From a virus, in IMG/VR virus record IMGVR_UViG_3300020187_000022, positions 4,336 through 68,335 of that record: a stretch of 64,000 bases of DNA, one strand, 5' to 3'. Shown here one piece after another: positions 9,796-64,000 of this stretch (the stretch's first letter is position 1; each line of letters opens with the position of its first letter). The translations under genes and the position numbers were made by a program. The notes under the pieces are model-generated. The model worked only from the letters and a program-made list of their open reading frames with translations, did no database searches and had not been told where the DNA came from.

Positions 9796-10956
9796 ATGAA
9801 TAACATACAAGACTTAGTTGCTAAAACAACTAAAGAATTAATTTTGACAGAGCCTTTTTATGGGCTCTTTTTAATTGGTATCAATAAGAAGTTTACTGAT
9901 CAAATTCCTACAGCAGGAGTTAGTAAAAATGGTATTGGTATGCAGTTGACTATAAACCCTGAGTTTTATACAAACTTAAATGATTTACACCGGCTTGGTT
10001 TAATTAAACATGAATTGTTACATATAGCTTTTGGTCATCTGTTGATGAGAGATCTATATAGTAATCATAAACTGTTTAACATAGCAGCTGATTTAGAAAT
10101 CAATCAATACATAGACAGCAGTAAATTACCTGAAGGCGGTTTATTATTATCTAGCTTTCCAGAATTAAATCTTCCTAAAAAGGCAGGGACAAAAGTTTAT
10201 TATAATCTTTTAGAACAAGCACAGGAAGACGGAACATCTCCTTCATTAGATAGCCTGATGAATAAGATGGATGGTGAATCTCAATATTGTCATGGTACAT
10301 GGGATGAGTTTGATGAATTATCTGAACCGGATAAGAAACTTTTGGAAAAGCAAGTTGAGCACCAGTTGAAAGATGCTGCTGAAACTACAGTTAAAAGACA
10401 GGGTAATATACCAGGTGAGTTTAAGGACATAATAGAAAGATTGTTTCATGTAGAGCCAGCTAAATTTGATTGGAAAAGTTATTTAAAAAGATTTGTTGGT
10501 AATTCTAGTGTAGTATATACTAAAAAGCTGAGACGTAAATACAATAAGCGTTATGCTGCTAACCCAGGTCTTAAGATTAAATTTAAGAATCATATTCTTG
10601 TTGGTGTTGACACTAGTGGATCTGTAAATAATGAAGAGCTAAAAGAATTTTTTAGTGAGCTTGCACATATGAGCAAGACGGGTCATAAAATTACTGTTGC
10701 ACAATGTGATACTAGTTTAAGAACAGTAGAAGAATTCAATCCAAAGAAAGATTGGGAAATACACGGTCGTGGTGGGACATCATTCCAACCAGTTATTGAT
10801 CATTATAATGAAAAAGGGTCATACACGGCACTTATATACCTAACAGATGGTGAAGCTTATGCACCAGATAACTGTCCTAAAAACACATTGTGGTGTTTAA
10901 GTAGTATATCTGAAATAAATAATGAGTTACCAGGACTAGTAATAAAATTAAATTAA
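9796..10956 (+). CDS. metallopeptidase-vWA protein (DUF2201-like)
   Basis: HELLH zincin motif, NIAADLEIN, DTSGS MIDAS, GRGGT and YLTDG. Confidence 0.9.
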   Translation: MNNIQDLVAKTTKELILTEPFYGLFLIGINKKFTDQIPTAGVSKNGIGMQLTINPEFYTNLNDLHRLGLIKHELLHIAFGHLLMRDLYSNHKLFNIAADLEINQYIDSSKLPEGGLLLSSFPELNLPKKAGTKVYYNLLEQAQEDGTSPSLDSLMNKMDGESQYCHGTWDEFDELSEPDKKLLEKQVEHQLKDAAETTVKRQGNIPGEFKDIIERLFHVEPAKFDWKSYLKRFVGNSSVVYTKKLRRKYNKRYAANPGLKIKFKNHILVGVDTSGSVNNEELKEFFSELAHMSKTGHKITVAQCDTSLRTVEEFNPKKDWEIHGRGGTSFQPVIDHYNEKGSYTALIYLTDGEAYAPDNCPKNTLWCLSSISEINNELPGLVIKLN

Positions 10957-41000: not shown

Positions 41001-44000
41001 GCATAAACTAAATTACCTTCAGCATTTTTGAATACAGACAAACCAATTGTTTCATCAAAAGGAGCATTTCTAATTGCCATATTTCTAAGTCTAGAATTCA
41101 TACCTCCTTCACTGTATAAGTCAACACCAGTTTGGATTAACTTTAGCATTTCTACAAAGTCTTCAGATATAACAGCAGACTCGTTAGAGTTTGCATTAAT
41201 AAGTGCTTTTTGTTTTACAGTTAATACACTAACAGGTTTGGCAGAAACTATACTAAATGCAATAAATTGTCTACTTAATTTAATACCAATCAGCTCAGAT
41301 AAAGCTTCTTGATATTTTTTAGATTCTTCTGTTAAACTTTTATTGGTAATTTTTTTATTTGAAGAAAGTAAACTTTGTAAATCATCTAATGTATTTTCAG
41401 TTCTAGTTTTAACTGCAGATTCAGATTTAATTATTTTATCTTTTTGAGTCCAAGCTTGTGCCCACCTGGTTACCTGAGAATTTACATCATCTCTTTGCGC
41501 GGCAGAATACATTAATACATTACCCGCATTATCACGTTGAGTAAATAAATAATCTACTCTAAAGTTTTCAAAAGCTTTTGTAAATGCTTGAAACAGCTGT
41601 GGATTTTTAATCTCTAAAGGTAATGGACTATCTGATAATAATGTTTCAACACTTACTCCAATAGAAGAGAGTAGTTTACTTACAACAGCACCTGTTTCTA
41701 AATTATCTTGACCAAAGAAATACATGTTTTGTAACATGGCTTTTGGATTTTCAATATTTTTAACAGACTTTAATAAACCATTATATACATCTACAAAATC
41801 TACAGGTACTATAAGCGTTTCTCCTGATACCAACTCAGCATTACCAAAGTAATCTGTTGCTTCTTTAGTTGTAGTTGCTATAAAAGCTCTAATGTCTTTA
41901 GGTGTAGACTGAATACCACCTACCATAGAGGCATCTTTACCCCATTCATCTATACCTCTTAATCCAATAGAATTCTCCATTGTTTCTTGATTGTACTCTT
42001 CTTCTCCAACTTGACTATCTATTACATTTAATAAATTGAAAACTTGATCTTTAATTATACCGGGTGATTCATCAAGTGCTATACTTACTTGATCTAGTAG
42101 TTCTATTTCTCTTTCTGATTTGTTTGCATATCTTTGATCAGCAGAATTATATAACTCATAAAAATCATCCATTACACTATTTAAAATGTCAGATTTTTTA
42201 AGTAGAGGATCTGTATTTTTATATGATCTGTTTAAATACATTGCCGCTATACTTCTAATTAAAGGATCAGCTACATCATTATCTACATATAAAAATCCTT
42301 TTCTAACAACATCTTTTGTGCTTCCATCTGGTTGTAAAACTTCAGTTATTTCTTCCGTCTCGTCATATGGTAATAAAGCGTTAGCTTCTAATGTAACACC
42401 CGCTTGACTAGTAAATTGATTAACTACTGGTGTAGATGAATAGTACTTACCTGAATCTATATTTTCAAACAGAGTATTTAAATCATTTTTACTATAAGAC
42501 TTAAAAACAGATTCTATCCATTCCAAAATTCTAGTAAATAATGATTTTACTTCTGAAGATGTGTTAGTGTTTTTAGGACCTGTTTTAAATAACTCAAACT
42601 GATCTGCTAAATACTCTTCATAGTATTCTTGTTCTAATCTAGCGTCACTCATATTTGTATATGTGTTAGCTGAACGTCTAAATATTTCTAATTCCTTCTT
42701 CAGACTTTTACCTTCTGATCTAAGTTTTGCTCTCACTTCTTTTCTAGCAATACCCAAATACTTAGTTATTTCTACATCTGATAATAGCATTCTAAATACA
42801 CCATGAAAAGCTTCATGATATCTGAATGGGGAATTAGCTCCGGTATAAATTGTACCATTGATTGTTTTACCACCAGCAATATTATTCAAGTTTAATACAA
42901 AAGCACCAACTCTTTCACCACCTGCTTTTAAATTATCCCCTAATAAAGTAATATCCTCAATACTTATAAAGTCAGGTAAGTTTTCTTCAGCCCATAACAT
43001 AAAAGTATCTATGTCTTCTACATCTGTAATAGATAGAGAGCTTAGTATTTTATTAGCAGAACTCATTATAGCAACTTTTTTTGCTAAAAGCTTTTGATAC
43101 TCTTCGCTTTCTCTTAGAGCTTTTGATTGTTCTTTTCTACTTTTACCTTCTTGCAATTTTGCTTTTAAGGCTTTGATTTCAGCTTTTACTTTAACCAGCG
43201 GAGAATCTTTTACTTCTACTGCTTTGTCAATAACAACTTCTTCAACAGGTTCTTCTGTTGTTGGTACTACTTCAGCAGCACGATCTTCAGCAGAAGTGCT
43301 TTGAGTTGTATTATAAGCTGCTTGTTCTGCTCCAGGATCTGCAAACAATTGAAGTGAAGAAGGGCTTGTAACTGATTTGATTACATTAGTAGTTGTTAGT
43401 TCTAATAGTTGTCCAATAGATGCATTTCTAGGAAATGATGATGTAAAGTTTTTAGCACTCAAAGATATTTTCTGGTCGCTAATTGTTTTATTATCATTAA
43501 ATTCTTGTATGAAATCATTTATTTTTTTAGGATTAAGTATTCCCTCATCCATTATAGTATCCTTACTTAACCTAACTGTTTCCAAACGGTTTTCATTTAC
43601 AGATACTTGTAATTCTATTTTACCCCATGGACTAACTTGCAAAGAAATATTAACACCTGGGTTATTTGTAATAAACAATTTTTCATTTAATGCTTTATTC
43701 CAAACTCGTAGAGCTTTTAATTCTTTGGATCCTTTTTTAAGTTGTGTGCCTGCACCTTTAGGTAATTGACCTATAACTTTTTGAGCTTGTGCAATTGTTT
43801 CAAGCATTAACTCATCAAAGTTTAATGGTTCAGCTGCTAAATTAACTAAGCTATATGTTCCATTAGGCATTAACACAACGGCCATATACCCATCAGTACC
43901 ATTTAACATTTCCTCATACCTATAACCTAGTGAAGCCTGCACCTTATTTAACAGTTCACGTCTTGCGGTGCCTTCTAAATTTGTCACACCAGTAACTGTT

Positions 44001-47000
44001 CTTGGTTGACCCTTTAAACTTTTTTCAAGTTTATATATTAAATAGTTACCGTCTTCATCAGCACGGTTATAATCTAATTGATTTAAAGTTCTTGTAGAAC
44101 TATTATCATAATCTGTTTTTCCTAATTGTAAATTAAAAGATATGTCATTAGGTAAGTCACTTACTTTAAGTGTAATAGTTTCTCCTGAGATTTCATCATA
44201 GAATAAACCATTCAAGGTGTTAGTTAAAACCTGACTAGTAGCAAAATTCTTTTTAATTAATTCTAATGCTTGTTGTGCAGTAAGTTCCTTTTGCAAGTAC
44301 TCCGGCAATCTAATTAAATTATTTGCTTGATCAATTGTAAAATTGTTAGGTTTTAGTTCTACACCATTAGCTTCAAAATAAAAGTTTTCTGTATTAATAA
44401 AACCAAATATACCTTGAGCATCTGTGCTAGGATCAATCCCTGCAACTGATAAGGCTTTATTTATCTTACCCAGTATACTTGGATCGCTTGTCTTAATTCC
44501 AATTATATATTTTGATTGTATTTTTTGTATATACTTATTAGGTTGATTTCCAGGATATACATATAATCCTTTTTGTTTACCAGCTTCAGGATCTAATGTA
44601 ATAACAAGTTCAAGATTTTTAATTTCATCTTGCGTTAAAGCAGATATAATAGCATTGTATCTATTTACACCCTCTTGATATGTTTCAGTAAACTGACCTT
44701 TATCATTTTTGTTTCTATAACCATAAGGAGTAACTGGTTCTGACACATCTAATCTAGATACATCATCTGCAAGAATATCCATGTCTATCTTTTGTAGATC
44801 ATAAAAACCTTTAAATGCTCCAGGTTTTACATATACTAAAAACTCTTTCTTTGCATCAAATGACAAATCACTTTTATCATTTGGAATCAAAGTTAAATTT
44901 TTACCTTCTAAAATTTTATTAGGCTTACTTAAGATTTTATATTCAATAAGGTTACCTTCCTTGTCTTTCTTATATACAAGACCCCCGGTATTTAATGTTT
45001 CACCATCATATACAAACTCACCCGCACTACCATAATCTTTTTCAAGATTTACTAATATTTTTCTAGCATCTTCTGGATCTGTAAATAATCCAATACTTTC
45101 TCCATATTCTTCTAGTAACTCTAAACCTACTGGTTCTTTAGTTTTTGAATCTATAATAGTATATGACTCTATAGGATTACCGTCAGGATCAGGATATGTT
45201 TCAGTTATTATTGAAAAGTTAGGACCAGCTTGGAATACAGTTTGAGATGAGTTGCCTTGAAAGCTCTCGCCTTCTGCTTCCATCAGTACTGTTTGCCCTG
45301 TAATATCAGATAATGATACATTAAGTTTTTGTAATACATCGGATACAAGGTTATTTTGTAAACCATTATCAGATGATAACCAATTAATAAATAATGTATC
45401 ATCTAATTTTTGTTCTTCTGTAAGTAAATTGTTTGGGTTTATTAATTTATCATTAGCAATCCATATATTTTTTAGTGCAGAAAATGCATTTCTGAAATTC
45501 TTGGCGGATTCACTATTAATCCATTCTGAATAAGGAAGTGTCTTACTATTGATTTGCCCTGCTTGATAATTTTTATACTGTATTAAAAGTAAATCTTTAT
45601 ATACATCAGAATTAGACGGCGCTATTTCTTCTTCAATACCAAGTTCTTCTAAAGAGGCATTCACTTCTTCTCTATTAGCTGCTTCTATCTCTGCTTCTAC
45701 TTTACTAATCTCAGCCGCTTCAGTCTCCTGAGCTTCTTTTTTACTAGTAGCATTATATACTTCTAGCAAACCTTGTATCTCAGCATATAACAAAGGGTTA
45801 ACAGCTTCTGTTATTTGACCGTTCTTATTATAGAACTCATCTAAAAATATAGTTGACCCTGTAAGTAAAAATGCCTTGGCTTTTTCAGGAGCTATAATTA
45901 CATTTCCATTATCTAAACCAGCTATCTGATTTACTAATTCGTTTTTCTTGTTTACTTCAGCGTATTCTTCAAGCACCGCTTTAAAGTCATCAGACAAATT
46001 TTCAAAGGCATTAGTAAATACTTGATTTTGTCTTTCAAAAATTTCATTAAACCTTTCAGGATTATTTAAATACTCTATAGTTTTATCATAGGTCTTAGCT
46101 CTTCCCTTTAAAGCTTTGTAATCAACTATATCTTTTAGTGCTTCTCTTATTGCTTCTTTGTTTGCAAAAGTACCTTTACTATTAGCTAAATATTTTACAT
46201 AGTTTTCAAATTCAGGTAATAGTTTATTGGATACTTTTGATTTATTAAATGAACCATCTTTATTTAAATTTTTGGGATCACTTAAAATAACTTCTAATGC
46301 AATTAATCTTTCTTTTTTATCAGTCTTATCTTTTATTATTTTTTTATTTTGTTCTGTATCACCTGTCAATACAGATAACTCAGCCTCTAAATTTGATAAC
46401 TCTTGATTTATACTATCTTTATCTAATAAAACAGTAATATCACTTGCTGCCATATCTTTAAATAAAGGATCTGACGCTAACGTTTGATAAATACTATTTG
46501 ATCTTTCTAAAGCTCTATCAAACCCATCCTTTGTAAACATATACAAATAGTTTGCATGAGCCCAAGCTGCTTCTTTAATTGCTTCTTGTTGATATTCTTT
46601 AGTTCCTTTTTTAAATTGTTGTCTATCAAAAGGATTAGGAAAATCATCTTTCCTATTATTGTAATCATTCTCAGTTTTTTCAATCTGATTAATCATACTT
46701 TGAAAACGCTCTCTTGCTTTTCCGCTTTCTACTTCTTTCTTACTAGCAAATCCGGCATCAATAAGTTCTTGATCACTTAGTTTATTATAATCTTCTAATT
46801 GATTTTGAAATATCTGTCCACCCCCAGTACTTAAGACTGTATATATTTGTTGAAATTTACCAAAGTCTTTTGCATCAATAAAACCAAATCTATCATCTGC
46901 ATAGTTAGACTGAGTAAGTTCACCAGCTACTTGCTTTTGAATTAAAAAGTTTAATTTTGCAGGATCCCATAATTGTGATGGATCTTCAGCTTGTTGATTC

Positions 47001-52326: not shown

Positions 52327-54822
52327 TTATCCACCCATCTTACCTGTATAGAATGGCACTACCATTCTCTTTATTTCTTTTCCTTTCTTTGCTACTGTTC
52401 TTCCTGATGCACCTCTACTTTTTAATTCAGCTTGACCCACTGTAGTTTGGTCATTAGGTTGTGTTCCTCCAATTCTACTTAGATAACCTTTGATTTCAGC
52501 TTCTGAAGGTGTTCTACCTAACCCCTTAGATAGTTCTGAGATGTCTTGGAAGTATTGTTCTTTTCTAGATTCTCTATCTGCAACACTACCTGTTTTTTTC
52601 AATGCATTAGGATTAGTAAAACCTACCATACCACCTGTCCTAGGATCAACAGCATAGTTGTCATAGGTTGTGTTTAGGTTAAATGTATTTGCTCTATTAG
52701 TTAAAGCAGCATTTTGTAATTTGGCATTTTGACCTATTCTCCAATTCTTAAAGTTGTCTGACGCTTGTAATACTTTTTGAGTATCATCATACTGCTTAAC
52801 ATTTCTGTTAGCTTCCAACTGATTAAACTGAGCATCCATTTGTCCTTGTATTGCAGCAAAACGATTAGCAGTTCCAACATTTCTACTATTTGTTCTACCA
52901 ATTGCAGCAGCATTAGCAGCAAGATTTTGACCTTGTATATTAGAATTAGCTACAGCTTGTGGTCCACCTACGGCACCCAACGCGTTAGCCATTGTACCTG
53001 CAGAAGCATTATTTGCATTAACCGCACCTCTCCAATCATCAAACGTAGGACTAATAACTGTTCTTTGTACATCAGGTTGAAATGGTAGATATAAATTATC
53101 ATCTATTAAACCAAGTGCAGTTAAGTTATTCTGATCTTGTTTCCACCACTCTGCTTTAGGTGGTGTATATTCTTCTGGTATAATTGTTTTTATTTCTTCA
53201 CGTAGTTCTTCTTTAGGTTCTTCAGGAACTTCAGCATCTTTAAAAGTGAAAGGTCTTCTTGAAGAAGTCCAAGTTCCCATCTTACCATCATAACCTGTAC
53301 CTACTCCTTTTTTAAATCCATAGTCTTTAATAAGAGCTTCAATTGCTGTAGCTTCATCTTCATCAGTAAACTCTTTTCCTACACGCTCACGCTCTGCTCT
53401 CATAGCAGCAACTTGTTCTGGTATACTTACTTCATTAAACCACTTTTGATATTTTTCAACTTCTGGATTTTTTTTATTACCGTATTTAGGTAAAGACTCT
53501 ACCAAAGCATCTATCCCAGGATAGTTTGCATTGGCTTCTTTCCATCCTTCTAGATTTTGTGAAGCACCACCAAATAATCCATTGTCTTGATATCCTTGTA
53601 CGTCACTGTAGGTGCTTGAACCAACCCCGTCATCATTAAATGTTATTCCCCATTCATTAGTATAACGATCTTGCATACTTTGATCAAATGCAACATTCTT
53701 ACCTTTTTTGTTTTTCTTTTTATTATTGTTACCTGCAACTTCTTCTGTTACAACTTCTTCTTCCACAACTTCTTCTGTGGCTGTAGGAGAATATGTTTCT
53801 TTTATACTTGCTAATATTTTATCTACTCCATCTAAACCATTTGCATTATAAGCATCTGTTAATTGTTTTATTAAAGCATCTTGTGTTTCTCTATTTAAAA
53901 CACTTGGTGTAATATTATTAAGCAAGCTTTGAAAATCAGGCGAGCTATTACCAAAAGGATCAAAAGATCCATCTTGTGCTTGTGGTAGCACCTCTGCACC
54001 ATACTTAGCCATTTCCTGTTGAGGCATTTGTTCTTGTTGATCTACTTGTGCCATCATTTGTTGAAGCATCATCATTTGCTCTTGTTGCTCCGGTGGTAAT
54101 GAAGCCATCAATTTCATTTGTGCTTCTTCTCTTGTTATAGCTTCCATTTTGGCAGTAAATTCTAATGGGTCAATTCCCTGTTGAACTAAATAAGGATGTG
54201 CTGCTAATGGCACACCATCTTCAAATTTCTTTTTAGATTCTTGTCCAAATGCAACTTTAGATAAATTCATCATGTTTTTCTTAAGCATAAGCTCAGATGT
54301 AACAGCTTGAATCTTATCCGCAAATGGTGATTCTAAATGGGCATAGTAATCATTAAGTTCATATTTTTTAGATAGTTTAGCCGGTGTCATTTTTTTCTTA
54401 GTATTAATACCAAATTCTGCCAGCTCATCTTTTGTAAATTTCATTTTATCTGTATCAGAATAAATAAATGATTGTTCAGGTAAAAACATTGGAACTCCAC
54501 CAGCACTGTGCCTTGGTCCTGTAATGTTATATAATCCAAACTGCCCATCATTAGTTAAATCTGTTAATACAGTTTCTCCGCCTTCAGCTTCTATATTAGC
54601 TCTATCTCTAGGTACACTTGATAAGCTGTAACGTACATCTTTATCATCTGTGTTATTAAAGTTAGTATTACTATAGTACTCTTGTGGAGTTGTAACCAAA
54701 CCATAATCAGCTTGATCACCGGTGTTAAGCATACCACCATGTCTCATAATTTTATCCTCAACGATTTTACCTTTAACTAATTTAAATCCTTCAGGTAATT
54801 TATTTATTTTAATCTTTGCCAT
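52327..54822 (-). CDS. modular internal virion (cargo-like) protein
   Basis: IEAEGGE...GPRHSAGGV domain, Q/M-rich linker; MRHGG, AKYG, AQDG, AKKG and terminal KMGG motifs. Confidence 0.7.
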   Translation of the reverse strand: MAKIKINKLPEGFKLVKGKIVEDKIMRHGGMLNTGDQADYGLVTTPQEYYSNTNFNNTDDKDVRYSLSSVPRDRANIEAEGGETVLTDLTNDGQFGLYNITGPRHSAGGVPMFLPEQSFIYSDTDKMKFTKDELAEFGINTKKKMTPAKLSKKYELNDYYAHLESPFADKIQAVTSELMLKKNMMNLSKVAFGQESKKKFEDGVPLAAHPYLVQQGIDPLEFTAKMEAITREEAQMKLMASLPPEQQEQMMMLQQMMAQVDQQEQMPQQEMAKYGAEVLPQAQDGSFDPFGNSSPDFQSLLNNITPSVLNRETQDALIKQLTDAYNANGLDGVDKILASIKETYSPTATEEVVEEEVVTEEVAGNNNKKKNKKGKNVAFDQSMQDRYTNEWGITFNDDGVGSSTYSDVQGYQDNGLFGGASQNLEGWKEANANYPGIDALVESLPKYGNKKNPEVEKYQKWFNEVSIPEQVAAMRAERERVGKEFTDEDEATAIEALIKDYGFKKGVGTGYDGKMGTWTSSRRPFTFKDAEVPEEPKEELREEIKTIIPEEYTPPKAEWWKQDQNNLTALGLIDDNLYLPFQPDVQRTVISPTFDDWRGAVNANNASAGTMANALGAVGGPQAVANSNIQGQNLAANAAAIGRTNSRNVGTANRFAAIQGQMDAQFNQLEANRNVKQYDDTQKVLQASDNFKNWRIGQNAKLQNAALTNRANTFNLNTTYDNYAVDPRTGGMVGFTNPNALKKTGSVADRESRKEQYFQDISELSKGLGRTPSEAEIKGYLSRIGGTQPNDQTTVGQAELKSRGASGRTVAKKGKEIKRMVVPFYTGKMGG

Positions 54823-54824
54823 AA

Positions 54825-57389
54825 TTATAATATTTCAATATCAGCTCCTGCTGCAATTAATTTTGCTAATAATAATGAATCAACTGTTGCCATTTCACCA
54901 CCTTCTTTTGCTATACCCATATTGGTTCTTACTGTTCTTTGACCTTCACTACCAAATGTTCCTGTATTAATATCCCACGCTCCTCTTTTAAGCATAGGGT
55001 TTTCTTTAGTAGCATATAAATTATCTGCAACCATATTGTTTCTATTATCAGCTTGTGCATCTTCAATGGCTCTATCCTTAAAAAAGTTGTTTACAACTCT
55101 CGCTCCTTGTACTGCAAACTCAGAACCACCAGTATAACCTTTCATTCCGGGACTATCCATAAATCTATTAAAGCCACCCTGAAACTTATTTGTTCTTTTA
55201 ACAGTAGGATCAGAAAATTCTACTTCTTCCTCTTCTTCTGGTAAAAAACTTTTTAAATTAAGTTCAGCTTGAGGAGTAAACATAGATTGTGTTTGTTGTT
55301 GTTGAGGTGTAGCTCCTAAACCAGGATTCTCGTTTAACAATTGAGCATCAGCTACAGCTTGAGTGTCATCCATATAATTGGTTTGACCTGATAGTAAACT
55401 TGAAAAATAATCTCCTTGGTTTTTTAATTGATCTTCAGTGAAATTAAAATCAAACATACCCAGACCTATTTGAGCTTTTGGTAAACTACCTCCGTCTCTT
55501 AATTTATTTTTGTTGGTTTGAGTTTTTTGCCATTTATTATAACTTGTTGGATCTAAAGCTTTATGTTCTGCACTACCCACTTTGTAAGTTTTTTTCTTTC
55601 CAAATTTGTCTATTATAAAATCTTCTACATCATTAACTTTTTCTTTAACAAAGTCACTCGCTTTTGATATGAATTCTCCAGCTTCATTAACACCTTGTTG
55701 AATAAATGGCTTAGCTTCATTATATTTATCTTCAAAAAACTGTCCTGTTTTATTAAATATATTTTGTTTTGGTGTTTGATTTACTGGGGTAATTGAATTT
55801 GATTGAACACCCTTAAGGTAGTCTTGATATTGTTGTGGAGCGTTAGCACCCATTCTATTAAAAGAATCTTGCTTTGCCCATTCCTTAAAACTTAATACTT
55901 TAGCATCCATAATACTTGGTTCTCTAGTAAGATCTACTTCAGTATCTGGAATTGTAGAATTTTCTAACAGCTCGCTTGTGTTACCTTTACCAAAAGTATT
56001 ATAACCCATCATAGTATTGTACTCATTAGGATTATCTACTCCGGCCAAAGGATAACTTATTGCACCTGTTACAGGATCAATACTTAATGTTGTTCCTTCT
56101 GGCATTCCATTAGCTGATGCATTACCATAATCTATAATTTGTTGCCTTGTATCAGCATCTATATCATCAAAGTAATTAAAGTTTTTACCAAACTCATATG
56201 TAGAGTTACCTTCTTTTTTACCAATACCAAAAAAACCTTTTCTTTCTCCATATATATCATCGTTCAACTCTCTACTAGAAATTAAAGCATCATACTTTCC
56301 TGTTTCAGTATTGTAATTTAATCTTGAATTTTCATTTACATCATCCGTAAATGTTTGTAAATCTCTTAAACCCCCATTATTCTTTGATGCATTGTATAAA
56401 TCTAAATTATCATACGCATATGTATTAGGATCATTAGGATCTGTTTCTATTTTATAATTATAGTAATCACCTTTTTGTTGATTCCTTAATGCTCTTTTTC
56501 CTTTTGCATCTCTTAAAAATCCATCTCTTAAACCATCTTTATTTTTATCACCAGATCCCAACAATTTATTGATACCTGTTCCTAATACTTGAAGTCCGTC
56601 AGTTAAACTAAAATTATTTCCTGATTCAAAAGCTAAAGGGTTTACATAGTTTGGTGCTGCAGTCCATTCATCTCTTGCCTGCACTACTCCGTTAATAAAA
56701 CGGTTACCTTTTTTATCTACTTCTAATCCTGTCTGTGCTTTAGGTGCATCATGCCCATAACCTGCTTCTTTAAGTCTAAGATGTGTTTCTATATCTTTAG
56801 CTCTTATCTTTCTATCACCTTTATACATAAAGTGTGGTTTAAAAGCTTTTTGTTCACCGCCTTCTTTTTTATTCCAACCTGCTGCATTCTTAGCAAAATT
56901 AGCCATCTTAACTACAGATGGGGGATATGCTTCTGTATTTGACATAACCTTATTAGCAGCTTCAGAAACACTCATACCACGAGCATCAGCCCATTTTGTA
57001 AACTTACCTTTGTTTTCTGGTTTGATTTCAATACCAGATTTTGCTTGTTGCATTTGAGACTCTTGAGTCATTGCTTCATTTCTAGCAATTTCTTGAGGAT
57101 CTTGTGTTTGTTGTTCTGGAGATGCAGGTCCGGGAGGCTGCATCTTTTGTTGTACTTGTTCAAACAAAGTAACAATATCTTCCTGCGCATAACCTACTTG
57201 CATAAAGACTTGAGCAATAGTTTCTTGATCAACTTGTTGATCTACTAAACTCATAACTACCTCAACAGGATCTTCTCCATTATTAATAGACGTAGAAATA
57301 AATTCTGTAATTTGTTGTATAGCCGGATCTACTTGCTGACTTGCAGCTTGTCCACCCATTTGTTTTACACTTATTTTGTTTACTTTCAC
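54825..57389 (-). CDS. modular internal virion (cargo-like) protein
   Basis: GTG start; short modules separated by KQMGG, AKSG, KKEGG, AQTG, LRDGG, AQIG and AKEGG. Confidence 0.7.
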   Translation of the reverse strand: MKVNKISVKQMGGQAASQQVDPAIQQITEFISTSINNGEDPVEVVMSLVDQQVDQETIAQVFMQVGYAQEDIVTLFEQVQQKMQPPGPASPEQQTQDPQEIARNEAMTQESQMQQAKSGIEIKPENKGKFTKWADARGMSVSEAANKVMSNTEAYPPSVVKMANFAKNAAGWNKKEGGEQKAFKPHFMYKGDRKIRAKDIETHLRLKEAGYGHDAPKAQTGLEVDKKGNRFINGVVQARDEWTAAPNYVNPLAFESGNNFSLTDGLQVLGTGINKLLGSGDKNKDGLRDGFLRDAKGKRALRNQQKGDYYNYKIETDPNDPNTYAYDNLDLYNASKNNGGLRDLQTFTDDVNENSRLNYNTETGKYDALISSRELNDDIYGERKGFFGIGKKEGNSTYEFGKNFNYFDDIDADTRQQIIDYGNASANGMPEGTTLSIDPVTGAISYPLAGVDNPNEYNTMMGYNTFGKGNTSELLENSTIPDTEVDLTREPSIMDAKVLSFKEWAKQDSFNRMGANAPQQYQDYLKGVQSNSITPVNQTPKQNIFNKTGQFFEDKYNEAKPFIQQGVNEAGEFISKASDFVKEKVNDVEDFIIDKFGKKKTYKVGSAEHKALDPTSYNKWQKTQTNKNKLRDGGSLPKAQIGLGMFDFNFTEDQLKNQGDYFSSLLSGQTNYMDDTQAVADAQLLNENPGLGATPQQQQTQSMFTPQAELNLKSFLPEEEEEVEFSDPTVKRTNKFQGGFNRFMDSPGMKGYTGGSEFAVQGARVVNNFFKDRAIEDAQADNRNNMVADNLYATKENPMLKRGAWDINTGTFGSEGQRTVRTNMGIAKEGGEMATVDSLLLAKLIAAGADIEIL

Positions 57390-57405
57390 AACAGTTAATT
57401 TATAT

Positions 57406-57423
57406 TATTAATATACAAATAAA
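57406..57423 (-). promoter_or_regulatory. candidate phage late-promoter motif
   Basis: Identical to 24920-24937; 16 nt upstream of GTG 57389. Confidence 0.55.
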
Positions 57424-57455
57424 TCAAGAGACTTACTAATTTTTAAGGTTTAACG

Positions 57456-60400
57456 TTACCCTATAACATGTGTTAATACATAATTAGCGGGAGTCATTTG
57501 TTTAGCTTTTGCATCCTTATAGTGTAGTCTATTAAGTTTATCATATATCTTTTCAGCCTTAGATTCCATTTTACTACCTGTATAAACACCATTAATATAA
57601 TTTTTATACATAATGTTATTTTCTATTTCACCACCTTTTTTTAACCTATCTAATTGTTCAAATTGCAAATATCGTGAATTACTTTTAACTCTACTTGAAT
57701 AGTTAGATCTGTTATTCCATTTAGAAGGTAAGTTCTTCCACACATCTTTCTTCTCATCAGCTGTCAACTGTTCGTTATATCTAATACCTAATATTGTAGC
57801 AGTTGCAATTGCTGATTTTTGTGGATCTAAAAAATCTTTATTACTGATTATATCAAAGCCTTTTAATGCAGTTTTTTCTTTATCATTTAGCTGACTCCAA
57901 CGTATCTGAGTATATCCCACACTGTTGTTGTCACCTTGTACATCATACGTATCATATTTTGATATAACATCAGGACTTGAACTACCTTGTCTGTCAAAAT
58001 ATTTGTTAGCAGCTCTTAACAAATTACCAGTACCACTATGTGTGTCACCAAAGTTTGACTCAGTACCATATATACCAAAAGCTATTTTTGCTATTTGATT
58101 GTACACATCTCCTGGTATTTGTGCAGCTTGCATTATTTCTTTTTTATTTTTCTCTAATGCATTGATGAAAGGTTTTGTTGTATTATTAAATTCTTCATCA
58201 TCATTAAAATCAAAAGTAGAATACACTTTTTCTTCAAATAATTTTTTATCTAACTTTGCACGTATAGGTTTATAAGATAAAGTAGAAGTACTATAGTTAC
58301 CCCCTTGACCTTCTTGCTTATCACCTCTTAAATCTGTATACTCCAAGTAATCTTTTCTATTCTTACTACTCATTCTCATCACAGCTTTACCATCTACTTG
58401 CTGAAATGAATTACCCTCATCCTCCGGTAATATAAATACAGGCGTACCCGTTGGTAGATTCATATTATATAAAGCTTGTAAATCAGAACACTTACCATTA
58501 ATACAACCGTTGGATGCACTATTGTTTTCAAGGTTGCCGTCATCAAAAAACTTATTTCTAAATCCAGGTGTACCATGTATAGATGTTCCTACTTGTATAC
58601 CACTTTCATTCAACAAATTAAAAGATGGTGCATTTTGATATCTGTTCTCAGAAGTAGGAGCACTTTGATTTATAGTATAAATACCAGCACCTGTTGATCT
58701 GTTACCAGCCATCCAGTCTGTTTTATACTTACCTCCTCTTTTGTCAGCCGCAGTAGTTATACCATCTTTATTATAATCTATTACATTTGTAACCGTTTGA
58801 GCATCTCCATCATTCGCACCCGTTAAAACTTCAAAATCCAAATCAACTTCATCACCTCTATATAATTTTAGCCTTTGTGTTTTTTTATCAATTACAACAT
58901 ATGCTTGATTCGGGTTATTTAGTAACTGTGAATTTATAATAATATTTTCATCAGTAAGTTGATTTACTTTGTCATTGTTTTTTTGAATATCATCTACACT
59001 ATACCATGCCTCATCTTTTAATGGTTTTTCTTCTCTATAAGAATCCGGTAAGATTAATTCTTGATTAACATTAATTTTATTTACATCTTGTATATTATTT
59101 AACTTAGCTAATTGAGTAACGGAAGTATTATACTTAGTTGCTAACTTTCCTAACGTATCACCAGATTTAATTGTGTATCTGTTAAGCGTAGAGTCCTGTG
59201 ATATTTCAGGTACAACTAATTCTTGATTTATATTAATCATGTTAGGGTCTGATATATCATTTAACCTAACAAGTTCATCAACAGATGTTTTATATTTATT
59301 AGCAATTTTACCTAAGTTATCTCCAGCAGAAACTATGTATTTTTCACCACCTTCTTGAAATGTTTTATATCCATTCTTAATACCTTCTTTTCCTGCTGCT
59401 GTTTTACTTTCTAAAAAACTAGCTCTGTCTCCATCAGCCTCTACATTTTTATGACCCGTTAACCATACGTCTAAAGAAGATATATTACCGTCTGCAAAAT
59501 CTGAAAGCTTTGTTTTTGATTCAATTAAATTTGCTAAAAACAATGCATATTGATCTTCTGAAGATAATTCATCAGCTGATTTAGCATTTACAATACTATC
59601 TTTTATAGTAAATCCTTTTGCATCTGCAACATTTTTATATCTTTTTAATGCTGTGTCAAATGACTCACCCTCAAATTGAAACAAACCTCTACCAGGTCCA
59701 CCTTGATATTGTTTAGCTTTTGGGTCCATTCTTGACCATGGACTTGATTCATGATAAGCAATTGTGTCTGCTAATTGACCCCATGTATCTACTGTACCTC
59801 CTCTAGTATCTACTAGATAATTAGATAAAGCATTATAATCTAATACATTAGAATTTTTAGATACTCCTGTTTTTGGCATAGGGGGAGATCTATCTATTTT
59901 ATTTGGTAAAACTAATTGTTGACCTAACTTTAAATTTTCATAATCTAAATCAGGGTTGGCTTCTTTTAATGCGTTCCATGGTATTTTATTTTTATTAGCA
60001 ATACCATAGAATGTATCTCCTTTTTGTACTTTATATTCTCCTGTCTCACCTCCGGGTTGTAACTCATCTAAAGGTGTTTTTCTATAACCCCTTATAGGAT
60101 CTTTTTTATAAAAATTAAAGTTATCAACATTTCTCATTTTAGGTTTCATAATGCCTATATCACCAACAAATTTGTTGAATGGTTTTGGATCCATCTGCAT
60201 AACTTGCATATATGCTGGTTGAAAATATGAATCCATACCCTTATACTTAGTTGGGTCTGACGGATTAAATTCCATTAAAAAATCTGAACTTCCAGATCTA
60301 CCTCTAGTATTACGCAAACCATCTAAACCTGGTTTTGCTGTTTTATCATACTTAAAAAATGTTTCACCTTTCTTAAAGAATGGACCATTATACCTTTTAT

Positions 60401-61238
60401 TTAACTGAAATTGTCCAAGTGGTGCATTTTTAAGTTCTTCAAGTTTTAAAGCAAATGCTTTAGGATCTATTTCTTCTCCTATTTCTCTAACAGTACGTGT
60501 TGTTTGTGCATCAACAATAGCTGGTTTACCAACTTGCCTTAACCATTTTTCATTATTTTTGTTGAGTTGTAAAAATTCAGGAAGTTTAGAATCTATGTTA
60601 TTATATGCAAAAGGATTATATTTATATGTATTTTTAGGTATATATTTAGTTACATTCTTTGCTTGTGACAACGTAGCAGGAACAACAGGCAAAGCACCTA
60701 AAGCATCAAACCCTGCATCTATGTAATTACCTTGTTCTAAATTTCTTTTTGATGAAGTAGCATATTTAAGCCATGCAGCAGGATTTAAAATGTCAAACGC
60801 ATAAGTATCATACTCATTTCTGTTTTCTGCTTTAATCGGAATACGGTCAGGTAAATCTTTTCCTTGCGTTAAATAACTAAGTGTAGTCATAGGACTAGCC
60901 ATATAGTCTAAAGCTTTTTCATACCATGCTGGTTCTTCATACTGTGATATAGTTGCCTGCTCGCGTCCTTTCTGTGCCAAGGGTGTTTCAAATACAACAT
61001 CACCAGGAAACTTATAATCATTACCTGGTATCATTATTTGTTCATTACCCAAATTGTCTGTACCCTTAACAGGAAAGTCTACATCTTCCATAGTAATATT
61101 ACCTGACTCAATTATATTGTAAGGATTGTTTACATCTTTACTGTAACGCTTATAACCTTCTACAGATATATGTTGAGTTATATCTTTTAAAAACTCATTT
61201 GGTCCACCAGGTAATCCTATGCTTTTTTTGTTTTCCAT
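57456..61238 (-). CDS. multidomain peptidoglycan-acting protein: 3x LysM, 2x lysozyme-like, L,D-transpeptidase (YkuD)
   Basis: LysM YxVxxGDT/N repeats; HES...GRGLFQF; VVIDK...IHGT...SNGCI; TESNFG...SVGYTQI. Confidence 0.85.
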   Translation of the reverse strand: MENKKSIGLPGGPNEFLKDITQHISVEGYKRYSKDVNNPYNIIESGNITMEDVDFPVKGTDNLGNEQIMIPGNDYKFPGDVVFETPLAQKGREQATISQYEEPAWYEKALDYMASPMTTLSYLTQGKDLPDRIPIKAENRNEYDTYAFDILNPAAWLKYATSSKRNLEQGNYIDAGFDALGALPVVPATLSQAKNVTKYIPKNTYKYNPFAYNNIDSKLPEFLQLNKNNEKWLRQVGKPAIVDAQTTRTVREIGEEIDPKAFALKLEELKNAPLGQFQLNKRYNGPFFKKGETFFKYDKTAKPGLDGLRNTRGRSGSSDFLMEFNPSDPTKYKGMDSYFQPAYMQVMQMDPKPFNKFVGDIGIMKPKMRNVDNFNFYKKDPIRGYRKTPLDELQPGGETGEYKVQKGDTFYGIANKNKIPWNALKEANPDLDYENLKLGQQLVLPNKIDRSPPMPKTGVSKNSNVLDYNALSNYLVDTRGGTVDTWGQLADTIAYHESSPWSRMDPKAKQYQGGPGRGLFQFEGESFDTALKRYKNVADAKGFTIKDSIVNAKSADELSSEDQYALFLANLIESKTKLSDFADGNISSLDVWLTGHKNVEADGDRASFLESKTAAGKEGIKNGYKTFQEGGEKYIVSAGDNLGKIANKYKTSVDELVRLNDISDPNMININQELVVPEISQDSTLNRYTIKSGDTLGKLATKYNTSVTQLAKLNNIQDVNKINVNQELILPDSYREEKPLKDEAWYSVDDIQKNNDKVNQLTDENIIINSQLLNNPNQAYVVIDKKTQRLKLYRGDEVDLDFEVLTGANDGDAQTVTNVIDYNKDGITTAADKRGGKYKTDWMAGNRSTGAGIYTINQSAPTSENRYQNAPSFNLLNESGIQVGTSIHGTPGFRNKFFDDGNLENNSASNGCINGKCSDLQALYNMNLPTGTPVFILPEDEGNSFQQVDGKAVMRMSSKNRKDYLEYTDLRGDKQEGQGGNYSTSTLSYKPIRAKLDKKLFEEKVYSTFDFNDDEEFNNTTKPFINALEKNKKEIMQAAQIPGDVYNQIAKIAFGIYGTESNFGDTHSGTGNLLRAANKYFDRQGSSSPDVISKYDTYDVQGDNNSVGYTQIRWSQLNDKEKTALKGFDIISNKDFLDPQKSAIATATILGIRYNEQLTADEKKDVWKNLPSKWNNRSNYSSRVKSNSRYLQFEQLDRLKKGGEIENNIMYKNYINGVYTGSKMESKAEKIYDKLNRLHYKDAKAKQMTPANYVLTHVIG

Positions 61239-64000
61239 TATCTCAGAGATATAAGTAATTTAGTATTATTTAATCTTAACAACATTTTTCTATTACCAGA
61301 ATTTGATCTTCTTAATATTACATTTGTAAAGTAGCTTCTAAATTTTTTATGTTGCAATGGTGATTTTAAATAATTCAAATTAACAGTATTTAAATTTTTG
61401 ATATATCCGTTATACTCTGTATTCCATATAGGTTGTTCAGCATTTGTAAATTCACCTCTATCATTAGTTACATCCCAAAATTGATTAAACCTATATTTTT
61501 GTTCAACCTTAGAACATAAAATATCAATGTTGTTTGTATTGATAATAGGATAACTTAATTCTAAAATAGGATTGTTGAATGGTGTAGGTGTTAACTTTAA
61601 AAGTCCTGATACTTGCTCACTATTATATATAACAGCTTGATCAAAATTAAAAAGTAAATCTTCCCATTTGTCATCACCACATGCATTACCCATTACACCT
61701 TTGTATACAAAAGCTTGCATTTGATATTCAATACTCCTTAGTGTATTTACTTGTTGACCTGTATTAGCAACTAACTCTACTTCCCATGGATAATCAATAC
61801 CATAAAAATTAGCATAGCTATCACATCTTTCATTATGTCTCCATATTGTACCCACTTTGTTACTACCCGGTACAGTGTCGTAATAAAAATAATTACAAAC
61901 TTGAGGTGTTGGATCAACCCAAGCAGGATCACCAATAGAAAATATCTTTGGAGATGTACTTGGACATATTCCTGTAACAGTTGTTACTGCATCCGATATT
62001 GGTGCAGTTGGACATTCACATGTAACTTTTCTACATATTGGTTGTTGTTCTGGTAAATTACTACATGTACCTGATGCTTCTGTAAATAAACCACCTGTTG
62101 TAGGATTAGGATAAACTAAAGTATATCCGGTAGGACATGTACATACAAAAGGAATTGAACACAAAGATCCTGCTACATTATTTGCAACAGACTCTAATTC
62201 AGAATTATTCTGAGCATTCATTGTATACTGATTTGTTCCTGGAGTACTACTAGAAGTATTATAACGTGTATTAGATAAACTATCTAAAATAACAGCAGAA
62301 CTAGGTACATTTGTATTTGATCCACAAAATACACCTATAAGTTCTTGTTTATTAGCAGCACCTAAATTAGTTAATGCCCAAGATCCTGTATTTTGAGGTT
62401 GACTTACACCACTTATAATAGTTGGACTTTGTTGTTGTGATACTTGTCCACTATTTGCTTGTGTACCACCAGTACCATCTGTAACTGTAATTAACAATTG
62501 TTTAAAGAAACTACTTGATGATCTATCACCAAGACTAGAACCGGCTTTATTATTTAACAGTGCTAAAGCTCCACTTCCTGTTGTTGGTGAATTTGCATTT
62601 CCAAAAATTGCTTGTTGAGCATTTGTGCCACCACCAGCCCAATTATTTAAATACCAATTTATAATATCAATACGAGATTTAGTATTTGACATAGGATCCC
62701 ATGGTGTTGAACCACCTGCCCACCCAGTAAATCCAATTTGCATATTACCAGATGTTAATTCTGATTGAATTGCAGAGTCTTGTAAAAATACATCTAACCA
62801 TCTTAATTGTGCAGTAGATCTATTTGTATTACCCATAACTCCAGTAACAGGATTGTAATTAGGAGTACCAGTACTACCAGACCAATCCATTGCAATAACA
62901 ACGTCTATTAAACAATCTGTTGACCCACCTGTAACAGTTGATACAACATCATCTACTGTTACTGTTGATAATGCTGTTTCATTTATTAACTGCTCACATA
63001 ATCCTGTATCAGCATTTAAACCATATCCAGGAGGACATTGTGTTACATCAGTAGTAATAGTCTTTGTTGTAAAAAAATGATTTATACTTGGTAAAGAAAA
63101 CTCCGGGTGCCAATCATGAAATGATATCCATGCTTTAGCTTTAGGATCATAACTAATAGTCCAAGAACAATCTTCAAAGTATAAAGGATCGCCTAATACT
63201 ATAGGTACTCCTCCACCTGCTACTAAGCTTGATAGAATAAAACCTTCTGATTCATTATAACTTATAATTGATATATATTCTTGTTTAACTCTGTAATCCT
63301 TTTTCATAAAATAAATTACATCATCATTCTGATCATAAATAGATTGACAGCCAACACCTGCTATTGGGTTATCTGATAATACAGATTGTTCCAATTCTGG
63401 ATATTGTTTAACTAGCTGTGAAGGTAAGTATTGTTCAAACCACCACTTCATTCCATTATTAGATATAGCTTCTAATCCTTTGCCAGCATAATTAAATATC
63501 TTTCCTTGAGCTTGAGAAATATAAAATAAACCCATAGGCGTATTAATAACACTTCTTAAACTTTCACAAGAACCATATTCATTTGATAAATCTGAATTAG
63601 CTACATTTTGAAATGGTTGACTAAACAATCCACCATCACCTATAGTTAATTTAGTATCTAAACCTGTTTTAAGAGTGTCTAACCCTTGAAACATTTGTGG
63701 TGATAAGTAAGGGAAGAATATTATAGCTCCACTTTTATTTATAGGTTTTATTACATTTACCTTACTCTTAAAATCTTTATAGTTAAAATTTAAAAATACT
63801 CTCCAATAATCTTTTTTAGATTCTTCTTGTGCTTGCAAAGAATATATAAGTCTTTTAGGTCTTGCTACATAACAGTTTTCTGCTACATAAGGATCATAAA
63901 ATCTACCTTGCATTTGACCCCAAGATGATAATTGACTTGGAAATTTAGATGGACTTAAAGACTCATCATATTTATAAAAGTTATCTATCTTTTGTATTTG
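61238..64000 (-). CDS. tail stabilisation/muzzle-like protein (5' end beyond the window) with a vWA/Cys-rich insert
   Basis: Frame is open to the window edge. WTISY...WISFHDW beta-propeller-type tail motif, DWSGS MIDAS and CPxGY repeats. Confidence 0.7.
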   Translation of the reverse strand, partial: QIQKIDNFYKYDESLSPSKFPSQLSSWGQMQGRFYDPYVAENCYVARPKRLIYSLQAQEESKKDYWRVFLNFNYKDFKSKVNVIKPINKSGAIIFFPYLSPQMFQGLDTLKTGLDTKLTIGDGGLFSQPFQNVANSDLSNEYGSCESLRSVINTPMGLFYISQAQGKIFNYAGKGLEAISNNGMKWWFEQYLPSQLVKQYPELEQSVLSDNPIAGVGCQSIYDQNDDVIYFMKKDYRVKQEYISIISYNESEGFILSSLVAGGGVPIVLGDPLYFEDCSWTISYDPKAKAWISFHDWHPEFSLPSINHFFTTKTITTDVTQCPPGYGLNADTGLCEQLINETALSTVTVDDVVSTVTGGSTDCLIDVVIAMDWSGSTGTPNYNPVTGVMGNTNRSTAQLRWLDVFLQDSAIQSELTSGNMQIGFTGWAGGSTPWDPMSNTKSRIDIINWYLNNWAGGGTNAQQAIFGNANSPTTGSGALALLNNKAGSSLGDRSSSSFFKQLLITVTDGTGGTQANSGQVSQQQSPTIISGVSQPQNTGSWALTNLGAANKQELIGVFCGSNTNVPSSAVILDSLSNTRYNTSSSTPGTNQYTMNAQNNSELESVANNVAGSLCSIPFVCTCPTGYTLVYPNPTTGGLFTEASGTCSNLPEQQPICRKVTCECPTAPISDAVTTVTGICPSTSPKIFSIGDPAWVDPTPQVCNYFYYDTVPGSNKVGTIWRHNERCDSYANFYGIDYPWEVELVANTGQQVNTLRSIEYQMQAFVYKGVMGNACGDDKWEDLLFNFDQAVIYNSEQVSGLLKLTPTPFNNPILELSYPIINTNNIDILCSKVEQKYRFNQFWDVTNDRGEFTNAEQPIWNTEYNGYIKNLNTVNLNYLKSPLQHKKFRSYFTNVILRRSNSGNRKMLLRLNNTKLLISLR

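Follow-up and report, generated by a model that had tools for sequence, protein, structure and literature searches.

A conserved joint peptide marks module boundaries in the predicted cargo proteins of environmental crAss-like phages

The stretch of DNA considered here, a window of 64,000 nucleotides (nt) comprising positions 4,336 to 68,335 of IMG/VR record IMGVR_UViG_3300020187_000022, is a piece of a phage genome of low guanine-plus-cytosine (GC) content (~0.31) in which three adjacent genes, designated A, B and C (products P0001, P0002 and P0003), encode large proteins punctuated by a short recurrent peptide, here called the joint. The plus strand carries a replication block with a helicase, a DnaB-like helicase, a primase, RusA, a PD-(D/E)XK nuclease and ribonucleotide reductase, and the minus strand is a run of very large genes, namely a muzzle-like gene, A, B, C, D, the giant gene E and a gene for a protein of 1943 amino acids (aa). 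The A-B-C-D-E order is also found in most of 80 related IMG/VR loci, and the same order of large genes recurs in a complete relative (G002) of 114,099 bases with terminal repeats, where crass ring proteins 2 and 1, a terminase, a portal, a scaffold-like protein and a Crass_capsid major capsid protein precede the cargo-slot genes. Because of the muzzle-like gene, the order of the large genes and the ring, portal and Crass_capsid genes of G002, the window is identified by its gene content as a piece of a marine or environmental crAss-like phage. Genes A to C occupy the genome slot of the cargo genes gp45 and gp46 of phiCrAss001, and their products are modular 'polyvalent' cargo-type proteins, predicted to be packed in the virion and injected. 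An earlier note on this DNA had placed them between the tail gene and the ejection or virion RNA polymerase (vRNAP) genes, a placement borne out by the gene order, in which they stand between the muzzle gene and the giant vRNAP-type gene.

The joint is, with high confidence, a real element that is conserved as a peptide. It is found in the linkers between modules, at the ends of N-terminal leaders and before C-terminal tails, is confined to the cargo genes of phages with a crass-type capsid, and serves as a point of in-frame module exchange. Its form was resolved from orthologues. A profile search with the P0003 family gave 80 syntenic IMG/VR loci, the genes of which were classed by their position relative to C; two of the 80 were dropped, their C-gene pattern being unmatched, and a few loci with split open reading frames (ORFs) are shifted by one slot, such that some A-type proteins stand in the 'muzzle' class. 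In de-duplicated counts, observed against shuffle-expected, the half-site [KRQ]xGG stands at 221/83 in A, 299/71 in B, 115/69 in C, 47/44 in D and 23/39 in the muzzle class, and PxAQxG at 78/0.5 in A, 37/1.0 in B, 12/1.0 in C, 3/0.3 in D and 0/1.6 in E. The composite form is [FLY]-K-x-G-G-[SDE]-L-P-K-A-Q-x-G-x-E, the halves of which, KxGG(E) and AQxGxE, also stand alone, and 4 residues separate GG from AQ in 43 of the 52 composite copies. In sequence logos, Glu follows G-G in 33% of sites and stands two residues after A-Q-x-G in 44%, where it is followed by Ile, Val, Thr or Leu; these flanking preferences are seen in A and B and are absent from D, E and the muzzle class. Both halves fit a single class with the core [A or hydrophobic]-[K/Q/R]-x-G-[G/x]-E, and the earlier note, which had described a mostly hydrophobic residue or Ala followed by [QKR]-x-G-G/x, came near to this wording. 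The joints of the window and the features around them are collected in Table 1.

Table 1. Genes, joints and associated features of the window (positions in the window; residues in the encoded protein)
Feature	Position	Strand	Description
Muzzle-like gene	61238-63913	-	crAss_MUZ PF25731 E 2e-6, just below cut-off; PHROG virion structural protein E 7.5e-22
Gene A (P0001)	57456..61238	-	1260 aa; leader, 3 LysM, lysozyme-like region, YkuD, conserved C-terminal tail
A leader MENKKSIGLPGG	61203..61238	-	Residues 1-12; KKSIGLPGGPNE kept at the N-terminus of most A orthologues
A joint PLAQKGRE	60960..60983	-	Residues 86-93; closes conserved N-terminal block; [KQR]xG kept in 34/39 aligned orthologue segments
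A joint LQPGGE	60045..60062	-	Residues 393-398; 3 residues before LysM1; kept 7/8
A joint FQEGGE	59343..59360	-	Residues 627-632; 2 residues before LysM2; kept 10/11
A joint LKKGGE	57627..57644	-	Residues 1199-1204; directly before C-terminal tail; G kept 48/48
A C-terminal tail	57459..57626	-	Residues 1205-1260; 'YKNYxNG...YDKLNRxHYxxAK...NYIMT'; common to A orthologues whatever the middle part
Gene B (P0002)	54825..57389	-	854 aa; GTG start; no Pfam family; 624 homologues, all unnamed or 'hypothetical'
B leader VKVNKISVKQMGG	57351..57389	-	Residues 1-13; KQxGG kept 52/54; pLDDT <50 over residues 1-20
B joint AKSGIE	57027..57044	-	Residues 116-121; kept 46/48; in low-confidence segment 106-123
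B small helical module	56871..57032	-	Residues 120-173; pLDDT ~80; tblastn to cr128_1 post-muzzle protein E 3e-7
B joint KKEGGE	56853..56870	-	Residues 174-179; G kept 38/44; in low-confidence segment 171-181
B joint AQTGLE	56721..56738	-	Residues 218-223; G kept 38/44; starts low-confidence segment 217-248
B composite joint LRDGGSLPKAQIGLG	55458..55502	-	Residues 630-644; in low-confidence segment 624-672
B joint AKEGGE	54894..54911	-	Residues 827-832; before C-terminal tail; kept 40/48
B C-terminal tail MATVDSLLLAKLIAAGADIEIL	54828..54893	-	Residues 833-854; near-invariant in B orthologues; model helix 838-846
Gene C (P0003)	52327..54822	-	831 aa; N- and C-terminal regions conserved, middle variable; 720 homologues
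C leader	54733..54822	-	Residues 1-30, ends MRHGG; M26, G29, G30 invariant
C degenerate composite joint MAKYGAEVLPQAQDGS	53965..54012	-	Residues 271-286; border of conserved N region and variable middle
D (P0124)		-	1103 aa; gene order A-B-C-D-E
Giant E	35093-48925	-	4610 aa
Candidate zincin-like region of E	42296..43063	-	Residues 1955-2210; HEAFH 2037-2041 = nt 42803-42817
P0123	24078..24389	-	103-aa basic ORF adjoining holin gene; FKRGGSMPSQ, MRTGGE, MRKGG, YKLGGG

Within the window, the strings on which the motif was first based stand up to inspection. LAQKG (60966-60980), LQPGG (60048-60062), FQEGG (59346-59360) and LKKGG (57630-57644) are exact by translation, and each of the remaining 12 listed strings occurs once in its named protein. 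Expectations were taken from 200 composition-preserving shuffles per protein, with sums compared by Poisson statistics. The loose form [LFMAIVK][QKR]xG was observed 7, 13 and 14 times in the 831-, 854- and 1260-aa proteins against 5.0, 5.3 and 6.3 expected (sum 34 against 16.6, ~2-fold, p 1.2e-4), and the tight form [LFMAIVK][QKR]xGG, in the same order, 1, 4 and 3 times against 0.4, 0.4 and 0.5 (sum 8 against 1.3, ~6-fold, p 6e-5); GG alone is not enriched in these three proteins (8, 7 and 8 versus 5.3, 6.3 and 6.8). Elsewhere in the window, 17,272 aa contain 7 tight matches, of which a single ORF of 103 aa accounts for 3 (Fisher odds ratio 6.7, p 5e-4), and the motif is not equally frequent in replication proteins, where 26 ORFs of 6,366 aa have 2 tight matches. 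LRDGGSLPKAQIGLG of B is the sole full composite copy in the window, residues 271-286 of C form a degenerate copy and all others are half-sites. Most of the instances listed in the earlier note are conserved in place, but two are not true members: 'KMGG', at the C-terminus of P0003, comes from a conserved TGKMG with a variable final residue after it, and 'AKKG' is part of the conserved tail KGKEIK. LRDGG and AQIG are weakly conserved, the former being kept in 9 of 18 aligned orthologue segments and the latter in 10 of 24.

That these are modular proteins with the motif at their module boundaries is borne out by Pfam assignments, by the ends of internal homology and by the model of P0002. The Pfam domains of P0001 are LysM at residues 401-445, 634-677 and 688-731 and a YkuD L,D-transpeptidase at 779-936, accompanied by a lysozyme-like region (phrog_3108 at residues 492-571). 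Pfam matches were obtained in 14 of 49 motif-bearing frames and in 28 of 36 scanned slot-A orthologues (ART-PolyVal, SET, PcfJ, DUF5872, SLT, Amidase_2 and PG_binding_1), and in these A orthologues 3 of 158 joint sites lie inside Pfam domain stretches versus 21.4 expected. In the AlphaFold model of P0002, confident blocks are split by segments with a predicted local distance difference test score (pLDDT) below 50, which total 352 of 854 residues. All six joints (9-13, 116-121, 174-179, 218-223, 630-644 and 827-832) fall in such segments, and joints stand exactly on either side of blocks 124-170 and 182-216; the low pLDDT of the segments may come in part from the mosaic alignment. The sites thus tend to avoid folded domains, although the loose pattern also matches within folds, for example LysM [VI][KQ]xGDT at P0001 residues 404 and 690. 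The model of P0003 was unusable (mean pLDDT 47.2).

The same site sets off both ends of these proteins. In orthologues of A, B and C the first residues form a short basic leader that closes with G-G, namely KKSIGLPGGPNE in A, '[LV]NK[KI]S[LV]KQxGG' at the N-terminus of most B orthologues, and 'MAKIKINKLP...M[RK]xGG' in C, where M-[RK]-x-G-G is present in 116 of the 116 P0003-family members with residues at that position; some other motif-bearing frames begin MKKLRKAQKGKE. At the other end, every A and B orthologue has K-x-G-G-E and then an invariant tail, of 55 residues in A ('YDKLNRxHY...NYIMT') and 'VDSxMLAKLIAAGADIEIL' in B. No such leader or tail joints were found in D orthologues. Further inside, 'E[VI]PMAQxG' recurs near residue 90 of A orthologues, and in MAKYGAEVLPQAQDGS of C the residues M271, A272, G275, E277, Q283 and G285 are near-invariant, with conservation falling after residue 286. 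In A and B, longer proteins have more sites (Spearman 0.5). The GTG of VKVNKISVKQMGG is most likely the start codon of gene B, since orthologues that begin with ATG have kept the leader. The protein-collection entries closest to P0002 are 844 aa long, which suggests that they are calls from an internal ATG (M11) that missed the leader.

Modules are exchanged in frame between related phages at the joints, as the earlier note had supposed in calling them exchangeable. When A and B orthologues were compared all against all by BLAST, 18.4% of the 8,415 internal homology ends fell no more than 5 aa from a joint, compared with 5.3% at random. The signal is stronger in recent events, defined as matches spanning 150 aa or more, with an identity of at least 85%, that end inside both proteins: 28 of 47 such ends are within 5 residues of a joint versus 4.7% at random, with a median distance of 4 aa versus 91.5. 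In DNA alignments of four pairs of loci (L070/L073, L067/L074, L014/L023 and L038/L042), near-identity on one side gives way to noise on the other, and the switch falls inside the motif codons; a fifth aligned pair is blurred by an indel. The exchanged cassettes include LysM, SLT, YkuD, lysozyme, amidase, PG_binding_1, ART-PolyVal, SET, PcfJ and DUF5872 modules, together with many unknowns. The synonymous codons of 36 composite copies follow the general usage of the genes (CCT 15 versus CCA 14, GCT 21 versus GCA 15, GGT and GGA at background), and selection therefore acts on the peptide, at least 8 residues of it, and not on the DNA, which rules out a DNA-level recombination signal as the sole cause. 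The likeness in DNA that is used in recombination arises because the peptide is conserved and codon bias is strong.

The joint is restricted in its distribution. A degenerate DNA pattern for GGxLPKAQxG occurs in at least 142 stretches of IMG/VR, and the 80 loci examined among them gave, with duplicates collapsed, 74 distinct long open frames with the pattern in frame. Among the loci examined, a Crass_capsid match was found in 26 of 32 motif-bearing records, and in 13 of 13 of those at least 90% complete. The exact PKAQxG codon pattern has 4 occurrences in the whole records of five relatives, always in A or B, and among the 91 ORFs of G002 motif enrichment was flagged only in A, B, C, D and one tail-fibre-like protein of 1765 aa. 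In bacterial genome contigs the same pattern matches at least 121 stretches, approximately the number expected by chance and mostly in spurious high-GC frames; in the 80 examined, cargo-like low-GC frames came from 3 contigs only, one of them crass-type and mis-binned. On these matches, most of which look like chance in high-GC DNA, a general bacterial or host motif was rejected. One contig in a Rickettsiales-labelled metagenome-assembled genome (MAG) (L264) is ~120 kb long and low in GC, and bears two composite joints in a long frame; the same assembly has a Crass_capsid match (on contig C2 of G037), and L264 is probably a contig of a crass-type phage that was placed in a bacterial MAG by binning. 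In gut crassviruses and Cellulophaga phage phi14:2, joints of the GG type are present and the PKAQ half is absent. The phi14:2 'tail protein' g070 (L352), a virion protein by tandem mass spectrometry according to its record, contains two HEFxH motifs and several GG joints, and phi14:2 g069 ends in AQGGE and a 19-residue tail, as B proteins do.

Although cargo and polyvalent proteins are known, the joint motif, its confinement to crass-type cargo genes and the clustering of breakpoints were not found in the literature searched, a search that covered text outside supplements and figures; the string 'LPKAQ' led to no phage paper. P0003 and P0124 had no match among 50,697 phage records, hence no cultured relative there, and P0002 matched over 66-71 residues only. 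A sequence-profile search of the PDB with the P0003 family gave no match, Foldseek with the P0002 model found none in the PDB at E <=0.001, and a search of the ESM Atlas found nothing, with a best score of 0.80.

Several further observations concern the neighbouring genes. P0123 largely consists of joints ([KRQ]xGG 4 observed versus 0.6 expected) and is conserved in G002, its N-terminal part matching a segment near the C-terminus of the G002 B protein; a role as a small packaged protein, an adaptor or a decoy is conceivable. Residues 75-125 of P0003 hold the invariant blocks NIEAEGGETVLTDL and 'GPRHSxGGVPMxLPEQSFIYSD', which loosely resemble the portal-bound domain of gp45 ('NEGGSHEENP...EQGEVVYDDYVFSD'), with pairwise and profile comparisons not significant. 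Giant E appears to correspond to the vRNAP-associated proteins that other crassviruses have, fused into one chain. The block 'YHEAFHxVFR' of its candidate zincin-like region is present in 54 of 65 E orthologue fragments, a second motif, HEQDH, lies at residue 4465, and a phmmer search of E against the PDB gave no match (best E 0.11). Of 64 A orthologues, 17 have modules of the HExxHxxD type; L003, L006, L014, L023, L026, L028, L052 and others carry one or two zincin-like modules of this kind, such as YDHEISHSIDRP and LVHELSHFTDDG. No HExxH was found in A, B or C of the window itself. The only Pfam-supported peptidase-like gene of the window, for a DUF2201 putative metallopeptidase and VWA-like protein, lies inside the replication block at 9796-10956 (+), with nothing to tie it to the cargo genes, and a tRNA-Arg (TCT) gene is located at the window start (48-123, +).

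A specific peptide conserved in linkers between unrelated modules would, we infer, call for a reader, and the reading we prefer, at a probability of about 0.38, is that the joint is cut by an endopeptidase at or next to G-G / G-x-E. Such cutting would remove the leaders and would separate the anchoring tails from the wall-degrading and effector modules, most likely after ejection, in the host, or late inside the particle, and not at head assembly; the best candidate enzymes would be the zincin-like HExxH modules within the cargo set. The polyprotein-like layout, in which leaders, modules and tails are all set off by the same site, argues for cutting, as do P0123, which is made up of almost nothing else, and the HExxH blocks present in E and in a part of the A orthologues. 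The available parts of Iyer et al. 2017 (PMC5512222) predict the processing of polyvalent proteins by zincin-like peptidases, and those of the Drobysheva bioRxiv preprint describe fused crAss vRNAP polyproteins as 'likely cleaved' and place a zincin-like protease in orthologues of phi14:2 gp65. In its widest form, the proposal is that joint-coded cargo polyproteins would be cut by cargo-borne zincin-like peptidases, releasing wall enzymes and effectors (ADP-ribosyltransferases, SET methyltransferases) after entry, with the joints also delimiting tradable cassettes. This is put forward tentatively and, taken as a whole, is rather unlikely. With one joint common to all modules, swaps made there in frame would always yield a working protein, which would explain the rapid shuffling.

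A number of findings weigh against proteolysis. The structural region of G002 revealed no prohead or other protease family (46 ORFs by Pfam, 19 by PHROGs), and a prohead protease was accordingly dropped as the enzyme. The G002 capsid protein lacks a long N-terminal extension and an ORF between the portal and capsid genes looks like a scaffold, so that assembly-coupled proteolysis is not expected; the capsid, portal and scaffold-like proteins of G002 have no motif. The joints of A and B were looked for in the fused giant E and none was found, and if E is cut, this would then not be through the joint motif. No Pfam peptidase was recovered above threshold for the HExxH regions, the best being Peptidase_M91 (E 0.0077) and DUF3810 (E 0.0038). 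In the accessible part of the phiCrAss001 literature, the virion gel bands, at 150, 270 and >300 kDa, agree with gp49, gp47 and gp50 being uncut, such that any cutting would more likely follow ejection; gp45 is modelled by its authors as one chain spanning tail and capsid, and the available text of that paper contains no words for proteolysis, cleavage or protease (PMC10172136). The residues of the AKSGIEIKP joint are conserved along with the small B module across distant crassviruses and so may belong to its fold. The P0002 model, built on a 24-row alignment, is of moderate confidence (mean pLDDT 58.6, predicted template modelling score 0.33), and the orthologue counts carry no phylogenetic independence. 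As to other known signals, sortase LPXTG, 2A-type ribosome skipping and GlyGly-CTERM were dropped for poor fit, and a ubiquitin-like GG tail was dropped as the C-terminal GG of P0003 is not conserved.

The same bands and the same lack of a detected protease family among the structural genes of G002 are compatible with a possible, if doubtful, alternative in which the joint is never cut and acts as a docking or hinge element, a flexible G-G hinge combined with a short recognition peptide. The peptide would bind a repeated site of the particle (portal, tail-barrel rings, muzzle or scaffold) or guide stepwise unfolding and threading, and the chain, once loaded, would be kept extended along the portal and tail channel and would leave it one module at a time. 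In gp45 (sequence NC_049977, of the same family as the PDB 'Cargo protein 1'), aromatic-GG sites at 207-210, 425-428 and 558-563 flank the segments resolved by cryo-electron microscopy, given as 214-245 and 425-552 in the text available (PMC10172136), and leaders of only 5-13 residues before a joint resemble a tag more than a module. A further joint of gp45 lies at 369-374. One targeting tag per chain would suffice, however, yet the number of sites grows with the modules; joints stand directly beside modules as unrelated as LysM, helical mini-modules and C-terminal tails, and the joints of gp45 are of the GG type only, without L-P-K-A-Q-x-G.

It is unlikely that the joint is simply a recombination joint without a dedicated reader, that is, a neutral flexible linker kept by microhomology-driven, in-frame cassette exchange, its conservation reflecting the spread of cassettes and a generic turn in place of recognition by a protease or docking site. 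The clustering of recent breakpoints is what this would predict, and DNA identity switches within the 12-20 nt that code for P-K-A-Q-x-G or G-G; given the strong codon bias (AAA 76%, CAA 82%, TTA 59%), no extra selection is needed for the coding DNA to be alike, the window encodes a PD-(D/E)XK exonuclease and other recombination-type genes, and Phi-K-x-G-[DE]-x-Phi also forms a frequent turn within folds, LysM among them. Nevertheless, synonymous sites vary as elsewhere in the genes, the DNA not being held constant where at least 8 residues are; leader and pre-tail joints are kept in place across hundreds of homologues with no exchange seen there, and GG-type joints persist in gut crassviruses beyond DNA homology. 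Chance recurrence of a short, loose motif in proteins rich in glycine and lysine is very improbable. The lack of enrichment of GG alone, the mere doubling of the loose pattern over expectation and its matches inside LysM and other confident blocks would agree with it, but it accounts neither for the excess of the tight form under composition-preserving shuffles nor for that of PxAQxG in A orthologues, the fixed GG-to-AQ spacing or the in-frame occurrence in distinct long IMG/VR frames, set against mostly spurious high-GC frames in bacterial genomes.

Crassviruses are among the most abundant phages. A searchable joint peptide marks the starts and ends of modules in hundreds of otherwise unannotatable cargo proteins, predicts where cleavage or docking could occur and offers defined positions for mutagenesis, and the clustering of breakpoints, with cassettes swapped in frame at one fixed joint, bears on the evolution of effector repertoires. 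Cleavage at the joint, if it takes place, would define a new protease-substrate system, and docking, if that is its role, would account for the arrangement of long cargo chains within the portal and tail channel.

Among known systems, the polyvalent proteins described by Iyer et al. (2017; PMC5512222) are large, multidomain and delivered with DNA, and their domain types (ART-PolyVal, SET, PcfJ, DUF5872 and peptidoglycan hydrolases) are those found here and in the orthologues; P0001, with three LysM, a YkuD and a lysozyme-like region, likewise unites several unrelated domains in one chain. That work deals with domains and architectures, and in its available text no linker or cleavage motif is given, the word 'linker' is absent and crAss-like phages are not named (PMC5512222). 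The gp45 protein of the Bacteroides phage phiCrAss001 (7QOG and related PDB entries; Bayfield et al. 2023) is, as far as the accessible text of its description goes (PMC10172136), encoded directly after the muzzle gene, as A to C are, packed in the virion and modular, with segments bound at different places; that text makes no mention of processing or a linker motif. A small helical module appears to be common to gp45 and P0002 (residues 120-173) by way of cr128_1, and is bracketed in gp45 by 'AKDGG' and 'NAFGG'. It is the only part of P0002 similar to the gp45-type cargo proteins of gut crassviruses: P0002 120-185 matches the gp45-type protein of cr128_1 at E 3e-7, and the segment aligns weakly to gp45 368-432 (i-Evalue 0.27). 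In contrast to A to C, gp45 is a single protein of 842 aa and not the product of three genes, and lacks the L-P-K-A-Q-x-G half-site. Neither P0003 against gp45 nor P0124 against the gp46-slot protein gave a significant match, and the P0003-family profile reached a probability of 0.3% with P0125.

Short cleavage sites in delivered or exported proteins offer a different comparison. Double-glycine leaders of bacteriocins, of the type LSxxELxxIxGG, are cut by C39 peptidases. The short N-terminal leaders of A, B and C similarly end in G-G, but are basic, do not follow that pattern and share their joint with internal positions, and no C39 peptidase or ATP-binding cassette exporter was found among the 43 window ORFs scanned. 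In T4, gp21 cuts packaged proteins after L/I-x-E and in phiKZ-like phages gp175 cuts after S/A/G-x-E; N-terminal targeting leaders are removed, and the assemblin-type prohead protease also cuts capsid and scaffold. The short recurrent sites in internal, injected proteins and the G-x-E-like core recall the joint, whereas G002 differs in having no detected prohead protease and head proteins without the motif. MARTX toxins, which are secreted by bacteria, release their effector modules at leucine-based linker sites by a built-in cysteine protease. Although they have no sequence relation to the cargo proteins, they too are beads-on-a-string arrays of modules that are exchanged between strains, and release by a co-delivered protease would be analogous. 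If joints are indeed both cut and traded, the cargo proteins of these phages may amount to a phage version of MARTX-type effector processing into which module shuffling is built.

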